Of a DNA stretch of 12,686 bases, positions 6,047 through 6,200 are shown one piece after another; the first letter of the stretch is position 1; each line of letters begins with the position of its first letter. This DNA comes from a virus, in UHGV virus genome UHGV-0141872; one strand, given 5' to 3'. The notes under the pieces are model-generated. The model saw nothing but the letters and a program-made list of their open reading frames with translations. It was not told the origin of the DNA and did no database searches. Made by a program: the position numbers and the translations under genes.

Positions 6047-6121
6047 TGGAGCGGGTAGCGGGAATCGAACCCGCATCATCAGCTTGGAAGGCTGAGGTAA
6101 TAGCCATTATACGATACCCGC
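6047..6121 (-). tRNA. tRNA-Gly (anticodon UCC), 75 nt incl. encoded CCA
   Basis: Manual cloverleaf: acceptor GCGGGUA/UACCCGC, anticodon stem UCAGC/GCUGA, loop CUUCCAA (anticodon UCC), T-loop GGTTCGATTCC, discriminator U, CCA encoded. From memory it is nearly identical to E. coli glyT apart from a compensatory acceptor-stem pair. Confidence 0.85.
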
Positions 6122-6124
6122 ATA

Positions 6125-6200
6125 TGGTGCCGACTACCGGAATCGAACTGGTGACCTACTGATTACAAGTCAGTTGCTCTGCCTGCTGAGCTAAGTCGGC
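6125..6200 (-). tRNA. tRNA-Thr (anticodon UGU), 76 nt incl. encoded CCA
   Basis: Manual cloverleaf: acceptor GCCGACU/AGUCGGC, anticodon stem ACUGA/UCAGU, loop CUUGUAA (anticodon UGU), T-loop AGTTCGATTCC, discriminator A, CCA encoded. Separated from tRNA-Gly by 3 nt. Confidence 0.8.

Follow-up and report, generated by a model that had tools for sequence, protein, structure and literature searches.

A fused tRNA-Thr(UGU)/tRNA-Gly(UCC) gene pair in a lambdoid late region is a candidate moron-type tRNA unit with a conserved leader hairpin and a structured trailer

Why does the late region of a lambdoid phage carry two tRNA genes that closely resemble genes of its host and are separated by only 3 nt? 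The question is raised by the viral genome UHGV-0141872, of which a stretch of 12,686 nt (the window) was analyzed; the features for which coordinates are given below lie on its minus strand. Our analysis favors the interpretation that the tRNA-Thr(UGU)/tRNA-Gly(UCC) pair at positions 6047–6200 is a functional, phage-borne tRNA unit of the moron type, with the Q-methyltransferase block on one side and the lysis genes on the other, and we assign this conclusion a probability of roughly 0.55. The unit would comprise, in the direction of transcription, its own sigma-70 promoter, a leader hairpin, tRNA-Thr(UGU), tRNA-Gly(UCC), a structured trailer and an intrinsic terminator.

ARAGORN found exactly two tRNA genes in the whole window, tRNA-Thr(tgt) (6200..6125, 76 nt) and tRNA-Gly(tcc) (6121..6047, 75 nt), both with an encoded CCA end and divided by a 3-nt intergenic spacer (6122..6124, TAT on the coding strand and UAU in the RNA). 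Both genes also matched the Rfam tRNA model (RF00005) over its full length (model positions 1–71 of 71), scoring 69.8 and 65.6 bits where the gathering score is 29 (E = 7e-14 and 1e-12); the sole other above-threshold Rfam match in the window was the sok antitoxin RNA. An earlier reading of the DNA made from its letters alone (the sequence-only reading) had proposed two tRNAs 3 nt apart at these positions and had suggested that tRNA predictors be run and host genes compared, and the ARAGORN coordinates are those of that reading. Compared with the K-12 genes, tRNA-Thr differs from thrU only by U16C and U20C, both in the D-loop (2 of 76 positions), and its anticodon arm (ACUGA/CUUGUAA/UCAGU) is the same as that of thrU. 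The statement that the threonine tRNA departs from thrU therefore holds for these two positions but overstates the difference, since the rest of the gene is identical. The same Thr allele is found, without any change, as copy 2 in phage SerU-LTIIb. tRNA-Gly differs from glyT only by C6U and G67A (gene positions 6 and 66; 2 of 75 positions), and the replacement of C6:G67 by U6:A67 is a compensatory change of an acceptor-stem pair, just as had been described for this near copy of glyT. Because only U16C, U20C and the 6:67 pair distinguish the two genes from thrU and glyT, the positions that we take from textbook lists to be the synthetase identity elements (G1:C72, C2:G71, G35 and U36 for threonine; U73, G1:C72, C2:G71, G3:C70, C35 and C36 for glycine) are all unchanged. 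The anticodon loops and 3′ CCA ends are also intact in both tRNAs, and the pair consists of genuine, intact tRNA genes.

The K-12 operon thrU-tyrU-glyT-thrT, which sits between coaA and tufB, is the evident ancestor of both genes. The pair is 97.4% identical to the host genes, and the host match falls into two pieces 200 nt apart; in K-12, thrU and glyT are separated by an 8-nt spacer, tyrU (85 nt) and a 116-nt spacer. The window differs from the host operon in lacking tyrU, thrT and shared flanks and in having another promoter, and the host operon has no leader hairpin. Outside the mature tRNAs, the window shares no sequence with the host operon and retains no host flank, so the pair is derived from host genes and is not a flank of their operon. 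The sequence-only reading had itself raised the latter option, namely that the pair is merely the edge of the chromosomal operon and not phage DNA at all. The 97.4% identity would fit such an origin, but the host locus has tyrU interposed, thrT following and coaA and tufB on its flanks, none of which is present in the window, while the window has the 3-nt spacer and phage genes on both sides and is 99.7% identical to one viral contig across 5.2 kb. This explanation has practically no chance of being correct and was discarded, and the genes are phage-borne.

If the pair is a unit of its own, signals for its expression should surround it. The region 6205–6365 upstream of the genes had been called AT-rich and promoter-like. 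It is AT-rich, and it contains a predicted sigma-70 promoter (6268..6295; −35 TTGAAA at 6295–6290, 16-nt spacer, −10 TATTAT at 6273–6268) that scores 10 of 12 in a consensus scan and has a predicted start near 6261; its part next to the genes (6204–6259), however, is a conserved leader hairpin. The pattern TTGnnn-16-TAnnAT was present 6–8 nt before the leader hairpin in all 30 distinct upstream sequences, although for six of these the scan first reported another site of equal score. The scan of the window returned 10 promoter-like sites where 8.2 are expected, so that the site of the window, taken alone, would be insignificant. The 30 sequences form nine clusters with 19–69% identity between clusters, and the promoter call in the window is supported by the fixed offset, which held across such diverged sequences. 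Two features of a moron, an own promoter (here predicted) and an own terminator, are present in the window. The terminator was located where it had been proposed (5666..5693), with a stem at 5693–5674, AACCGCCGCUCCAGGCGGUU, followed by U8 (T-run to ∼5666), and in most loci with a long trailer the terminator motif lies 353–364 nt after tRNA-Gly.

The leader hairpin (6204..6259) has the form GGUUCC-(A)A-GGG...CCU-GA-GGAACC, starts at the predicted transcription start and ends 3 nt (AAU) before tRNA-Thr. Its frame, GGTTCY...RGAACC, was found in 52 of 52 two-tRNA cassettes with sufficient upstream DNA, and in 50 of these it ends exactly 3 nt before the Thr gene. The RNAalifold consensus, calculated from 18 of 26 distinct variants, contains nine pairs, of which six form the stem and three lie beyond a tandem GA/GA internal loop, and the conserved base reads GGUUCY-GA-GGG / CCY-GA-RGAACC. 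The closing pair covaries (CG in 7, UA in 6, UG in 4 and CA in 1), and the occurrence of U·G closing pairs favors an RNA structure over a DNA palindrome. No such hairpin was found upstream of host thrU or of ileZ in phage phiP27, and the element has no Rfam match. A 27-codon frame that starts at 6243 behind GGGAGGG and runs into tRNA-Thr was treated as a chance occurrence. A promoter-like site (TTGCCA-17-GATAAT) is located directly after Q, at 8926–8898, and in phage 21 and JLK-2012 the late promoter pR′, the Q-binding element and tR′ precede the tRNAs, while the cassette of phi467 lies downstream of stxAB; the cassette promoter is therefore unlikely to be pR′.

Is this arrangement peculiar to the window? 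A 65-nt probe over the fused junction (at least 80% covered) detected the fused pair in 877 of 5,426 complete E. coli genomes (16%), and an exact-pattern scan found it in at least 120 viral contigs. The whole 154-nt pair occurs at 99% identity or more in ∼95 records, one of which is 100% identical and annotated as tRNA-Thr and tRNA-Gly. Published phages in which the pair is annotated include SerU-LTIIb, phi467, JLK-2012, PhiR47_1 and several vB_Eco phages, always between Q and the lysis genes and sometimes beside stx or LT-II genes. The cassette is thus common, not rare, and its kind is well known; since the exact sequences are also annotated in public records, it must be regarded as already known. 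In a search of 185,579 species, each represented by a single genome, the exact junction was confined to E. coli, Shigella flexneri, E. ruysiae and Citrobacter braakii, plus a single contig. The latter, from an assembly of the myxobacterium Corallococcus exercitus, is 423 nt long with a coverage of 0.67 and is probably a contamination.

The variation among 116 viral-contig copies of the cassette indicates what has been maintained. The Thr gene is identical to the host gene in 71 copies and the Gly gene in 56; the alleles of the window mark lineages that are in the minority (22 copies have Thr C16/C20 and 39 have Gly U6:A66), and the TAT spacer is present in 112. C6U and the change of its partner occur together in 46 of the 51 copies with C6U, and in four of the remaining five the partner is still G, which gives a U·G wobble pair; similarly, G48A co-occurs with C64U, the two forming a stem pair. 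Across the 47 loci whose flanks are complete, tRNA positions that the search pattern left free to vary are 97.8% identical for Thr and 98.5% for Gly, compared with 46% for the 70 nt upstream. The tRNAs are under purifying selection, and this constraint is the signature of working tRNAs, to which gene conversion with host copies could contribute.

The same data bear on the view that the pair is a neutral passenger, captured host DNA that hitch-hikes or serves as a stretch of homology for mosaic exchange among lambdoid phages, with its near-identity to the host genes reflecting repeated gene conversion. The many host-identical copies just described would be expected in this case, as would the great variation of both flanks among loci and two clear traces of rearrangement: in SerU-LTIIb the cassette is duplicated around a partial holin gene, and the tRNA-Thr of JLK-2012 is a chimera with a crossover inside the gene (positions 1–26 of the phage 21 type, 27–76 of the thrU type). 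A passenger, however, should not have kept the fused 3-nt junction and the leader hairpin in hundreds of genomes, nor paired stem changes that maintain the cloverleaf, nor a promoter at a fixed offset despite sequence turnover, and no host flank was kept. The junction, hairpin, paired changes and promoter therefore argue for selection for the expression of working tRNAs, and we consider a passive role quite improbable. In the JLK-2012 chimera (4995–5070) the first part is identical to the phage 21 gene (2806–2881), the thrU-type part carries G42U, U43C and a compensating U68C, and the gene is not called by ARAGORN; copies of this type (at least 95% identity) are present in ∼75 E. coli records.

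Two recurrent forms of the cassette were distinguished among the viral contigs, Thr-Gly alone and a four-tRNA form with a Met/Ile-type(CAU) gene, Arg(UCU) or Lys(UUU), Thr and Gly. The second gene of the four-tRNA form toggles between an Arg(UCU) loop, CUUCUAA, and a ‘Lys(UUU)’ loop, CCUUUAA, in which C replaces the near-universal U33. This version, which is not in the window, could be an allele that evades anticodon nucleases. Anticodon switches were also observed in the Thr-type body, in one copy to UCU (Arg) through G35C, accompanied by G24A and A31G, and in others to UUU (Lys) through G35U, accompanied by A26G. Such copies are found in SerU-LTIIb (1122–1197), two IMG/VR loci and E. coli E1316, and annotation pipelines label them Arg or Lys from the anticodon.

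Between tRNA-Gly and the terminator lies a structured non-coding trailer (5694..6046), ∼380 nt long when the terminator is included (5662–6046), with a 90-nt hairpin at 5924..5835. The minimum free energy of trailer plus terminator is −136.5 kcal/mol, compared with −106.1 ± 6.3 kcal/mol for shuffled sequences (z = −4.8), and the alifold consensus contains 103 pairs, 13 of them with compensatory changes (counts that are uncorrected for phylogeny), with 97.7% of cells canonical. All open reading frames in the trailer and leader overlap the tRNAs or the terminator, and none of them is credible. Matches to miRNA families at 5825–5936 were far below threshold, reflect only the long hairpin and were rejected. 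The 3′ part of the trailer (5852..5662) gave a weak end-to-end match to STnc100 (Rfam RF02076) that scored 20.6 bits (E = 0.019 when 411 nt were searched) and so stayed below the family's gathering score of 47. According to a preprint (bioRxiv 10.64898/2026.05.13.724894), the small RNAs (sRNAs) of the STnc100/PasD family are encoded in lambdoid prophages between Q and the genes for holin and lysozyme, which is the same class of location, and the weak match spans the CGGGAGGYACCCG hairpin and the terminator. The trailer differs from this family in its subthreshold score, in its greater length and in directly following tRNA genes; given the shared slot, it may be a distant STnc100/PasD member or a new prophage RNA. 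In the same preprint, tRNA hits near Pas sRNAs are read as remnants of prophage integration sites, and for bacteriophage genomes it is stated that the DNA flanking Pas sRNA genes gave no unambiguous tRNA hits (bioRxiv 10.64898/2026.05.13.724894). At least some of the hits are probably phage-borne tRNA genes, because the cassette described here lies inside the late region and sequenced phages (phi467, JLK-2012, phage 21 and SerU-LTIIb) carry it.

The trailer suggests another role for the tRNAs, as modules that mainly process and stabilize a non-coding transcript; cuts by RNase P and RNase E at the tRNAs would then free the trailer as a prophage sRNA. A parallel exists in the 3′ external transcribed spacer of the E. 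coli glyW-cysT-leuZ transcript. One predicted promoter and one strong terminator enclose leader, tRNAs and trailer, the trailer is unusually structured by the measures given above (z = −4.8 and 13 compensatory pairs), and its 3′ half aligns weakly from end to end with STnc100, whose PasD family occupies the same slot. Of 112 loci, 42 have the conserved trailer with its terminator motif behind tRNA-Gly, made up of 32 of the 46 two-tRNA cassettes and 10 of the 66 others, which links the trailer mainly to the two-tRNA form. The other 14 of the 46 two-tRNA cassettes are without the motif, however, the STnc100 score is far below the gathering threshold, and the selection that preserves the cloverleaf, together with the retained anticodons, argues that decoding matters. 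A mainly riboregulatory operon is for these reasons considered unlikely.

What would be gained from decoding was approached through codon usage, by comparing the 30 late genes annotated in a relative of 94.5% identity with 33 chromosomal genes of the same strain. Per 1,000 codons, the late genes contain 15.3 ACA (host 4.5; 3.4-fold), 39.7 ACG (17.3; 2.3-fold), 11.9 GGA (6.5; 1.8-fold) and 25.5 GGG (11.2; 2.3-fold). For the two boxes, ACR (ACA and ACG) reaches 55.0 against 21.8 and GGR (GGA and GGG) 37.4 against 17.7, late-to-host ratios of 2.1 to 2.5, and among the codon boxes that are read by tRNAs with U at the wobble position (U34) the absolute excess is largest for ACR and second largest for GGR. 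Among all 61 codons, ACG ranks 1st, GGG 4th, ACA 6th and GGA 12th. The open reading frames of the window itself show the same tendency, as ACA makes up 25% of their threonine codons (8–9% in the host; odds ratio 3.3–3.7) and GGA 19% of their glycine codons (9–10% in the host; odds ratio 2.1–2.3). According to the P2-OLD study discussed below (PMC12445682), thrU encodes the sole UGU tRNA of MG1655, which is of low abundance.

The most likely function of the pair, to which we give slightly better than an even chance, is to provide, constitutively and again in the late phase, the only tRNAs that decode ACA and GGA. The cassette would be transcribed constitutively from its own promoter and, in addition, by Q-modified read-through in the late phase; the precursor would be processed like ordinary tRNA precursors; and the result would be a larger supply of these tRNAs, which in the host are single-copy and of low abundance and which also read ACG and GGG. 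Promoter activity, expression and translational benefit are here deduced from the DNA and from comparison of loci.

Several observations weigh against this interpretation. In phage 21 and JLK-2012 the order is Q, pR′ with the Q-binding element, tR′, tRNA-Asn and tRNA-Thr (followed by Gly in JLK-2012), and no separate promoter or leader hairpin was found before these tRNAs; because they lack a promoter of their own, the idea of an autonomous unit is limited to the two-tRNA form. As the window ends close to where the packaging genes begin, the codon counts had to be taken from late genes of the relative, in whose major capsid gene ACA and GGA are infrequent. The genes of this Thr/Gly phage are enriched in AUA and AGA as well, and the window has no tRNA for either. 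The late genes of phiP27, which has no Thr or Gly tRNA, show a similar excess (ACA 15.3, GGA 15.6, ACR 34.5 and GGR 35.5), so codon excess fails to predict which tRNAs are carried. The comparison of ACA and GGA frequencies that had been proposed from the sequence thus revealed enrichment over the host, but one that is not discriminating. Codon supply is compatible with codon demand and plausible, not proven.

A different reason for carrying a threonine tRNA is offered by host and prophage nucleases. Since 2025 tRNA-Thr(UGU) has been known as the lethal target of P2-OLD (PMC12445682, NAR 2025). This effector of P2-lambda interference is described there as killing through cleavage within the anticodon stem of the host's tRNA-Thr(UGU), with the thrU product as its primary target and lambda-type phages as victims; the cut sites are paired CNG motifs at positions 28–30 and 40–42, and A37 is present in the substrates. 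Cells are rescued by tRNA-Thr(UGU) genes of phages, among them the lambdoid phage 21, resistance requires a change of the CNG motif together with a shortening of the stem, and an additional host thrU gives little or no protection (PMC12445682). The cassette could therefore serve in counter-defence, replenishing tRNAs that are destroyed by nucleases of the host or of rival prophages, above all by P2-OLD. In line with this idea, the tRNA-Thr of phage 21 occupies the same slot (Q, pR′, tR′, Asn, Thr, S21), Lys(UUU) and Asn(GUU), both found in lambdoid cassettes, are among the tRNAs with measured P2-OLD cleavage in that study (PMC12445682), and both tRNAs of the window have A37 and paired CNG motifs (CUG/CAG in Thr and CAG/CUG in Gly).

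The details of the Thr allele point in another direction. It keeps C28-U29-G30, C40-A41-G42, A37 and the five pairs 27–31:39–43, all as in thrU, and should for this reason be sensitive to P2-OLD. The phage 21 gene (OL657228) belongs to a different lineage, with the arm GUCGC/GCGAA, UCG and CGA at the CNG sites and a G27·A43 mismatch. An OLD-escape allele was accordingly ruled out for the window, whose anticodon arm is that of thrU. Replenishment is opposed by the same identity, as host thrU barely protects and 71 of the 116 cassette Thr copies are identical to thrU throughout, and tRNA-Gly is not named among the OLD substrates in the main text of the study (PMC12445682). Elsewhere in the family, G42 and U43 are both changed (to C,C or U,C) in four of the 116 copies and in JLK-2012, whose tRNA-Thr is mismatched at 27:43 and 28:42. 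These changes break two stem pairs and one CNG motif, and from their sequence such alleles look like escape evolution; the allele of the window is of the ordinary host type. Overall, counter-defence is unlikely to be what maintains this cassette, about as unlikely as the mainly riboregulatory role. Sorting prophage alleles into host and escape types nevertheless helps to predict phage-phage exclusion.

A bolder reading, which we regard as unlikely, is that the pair is the front half of a conserved, self-transcribed non-coding operon that consists of promoter, hairpin with tandem G·A pairs, the two tRNAs, an STnc100/PasD-like RNA of ∼380 nt and terminator; a second one, compatible with it, is that both tRNAs were recruited because of the anticodon-stem signature that OLD-type nucleases cut. 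In such an operon, tRNA processing may release a regulatory RNA and the hairpin may control the stability or processing of the precursor; if so, the cassette would couple decoding capacity to riboregulation in lysogens. Under recruitment, which does not exclude the operon, the signature of the OLD-cut anticodon stem may mark the family as an arena of escape evolution, as the G42/U43 changes and the switched anticodons would illustrate.

The codon-supply unit that we favor lies in the late region of a phiP27-like lambdoid E. coli prophage. The context is defined by the Q antiterminator (9020..9394; PF06530, E = 4.5e-51), and the minus-strand order is hok/sok, a DUF968 protein, Q, an Rce1/CPBP-like membrane protease (8866..8048), an N6/N4 DNA methyltransferase that is the upstream neighbor of the cassette (6366..7412; PF01555, E = 4e-42), the tRNAs, a gene-poor stretch of ∼1.1 kb, holins and endolysin. 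The lysis block (3828..4922) consists of a holin (4922..4473), a second holin (4483..4208) and, as the last of the three genes, an M15 endolysin (4211..3828), which together account for Pfam matches to PF16931, PF05449 and PF13539. The placement given by the sequence-only reading, between methyltransferase (7412..6366) and lysis genes (4922..3828) on the late strand, is thus correct, with Q upstream. Annotated relatives, both prophages and phages, keep the gene order of the window, and the slot between Q and lysis on the late strand is also used in phiP27, phi467, JLK-2012, SerU-LTIIb and phage 21.

Several neighbors of the cassette were recorded in passing. The sok antitoxin RNA (11779–11953) is full-length (115 bits) with a hok-type toxin frame adjoining; this hok/sok module is in the early-right region of the prophage, and its toxin is annotated hokD in relatives. 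A strong terminator at 7905–7890 follows the CPBP-type protease gene (8866–8048), and if the promoter-like site after Q is pR′, the protease would occupy the constitutive pR′–tR′ interval. No credible gene was found in the ∼1.1 kb between tRNAs and holins; within it, the ∼740 nt upstream of the holin gene (4923–5661) contain no credible open reading frame, and a second strong terminator-like hairpin (5020–4999) is located ∼80 nt before the holin start. As PasA, PasC and PasD1 directly adjoin the holin-lysozyme operon (bioRxiv 10.64898/2026.05.13.724894), another sRNA could lie within 4923–5661.

A close known counterpart is phiP27, which is ∼92% identical across the alignable parts of the block and in which ileZ, argO and stx2e take the place of the Thr and Gly genes; the comparison with the better-known ileZ-argN-argO set, drawn already from the sequence, is thereby substantiated. 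The ileZ-argN-argO and ileZ-argO (phiP27) sets share the slot of the pair on the late strand, where the methyltransferase gene precedes them and cargo and lysis genes follow, and the ileZ-argO set, like the pair in the window, reads codons that end in A and are seldom used by E. coli. Supply of rare-codon tRNAs for phage and toxin genes is the long-standing view of ileZ-argN-argO as well. The two systems differ in that phiP27 carries Ile(CAU) and Arg(UCU) with 101 nt between the tRNAs, whereas the window has only Thr(UGU) and Gly(UCC), and a permissive Rfam search of 4900–6450 found no remnants of ileZ or argO and no degenerate extra tRNAs beside the pair. They also differ in cargo, since the codons read by the phiP27 tRNAs are concentrated in stx2e (AUA 44 and AGA 25 per 1,000), while the window is without a toxin gene. 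Many viral contigs combine both sets, with Met/Ile(CAU), Arg(UCU) or Lys(UUU), Thr and Gly.

The tRNA-Thr21 of phage 21 resembles that of the window in anticodon, phage class and position between Q and lysis. Its arm has no CNG motifs and a 4-bp stem, whereas the arm in the window is host-identical, and the gene stands behind pR′-tR′ after tRNA-Asn, without a Gly partner, a promoter of its own or a hairpin. The tRNA clusters of T4-type phages include Thr(UGU) and Gly(UCC) genes that are ∼83% identical to the pair, but these phages are virulent, their clusters hold several tRNA species, Gly does not directly follow Thr, and the two genes have diverged further from those of the host. Phage tRNA clusters are typically tightly packed, as is the pair with its 3-nt spacer. 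Literature searches yielded nothing specific to the Thr-Gly pair and no description of the leader hairpin, the fixed-offset promoter or the structured trailer. tRNAs between Q and lysis affect the translation of late genes and, in related phages, of toxin genes. In summary, set beside these systems, the tRNA pair of the window is routine and already annotated, and the conserved architecture around it, formed by promoter, hairpin and trailer, is the less-charted part.

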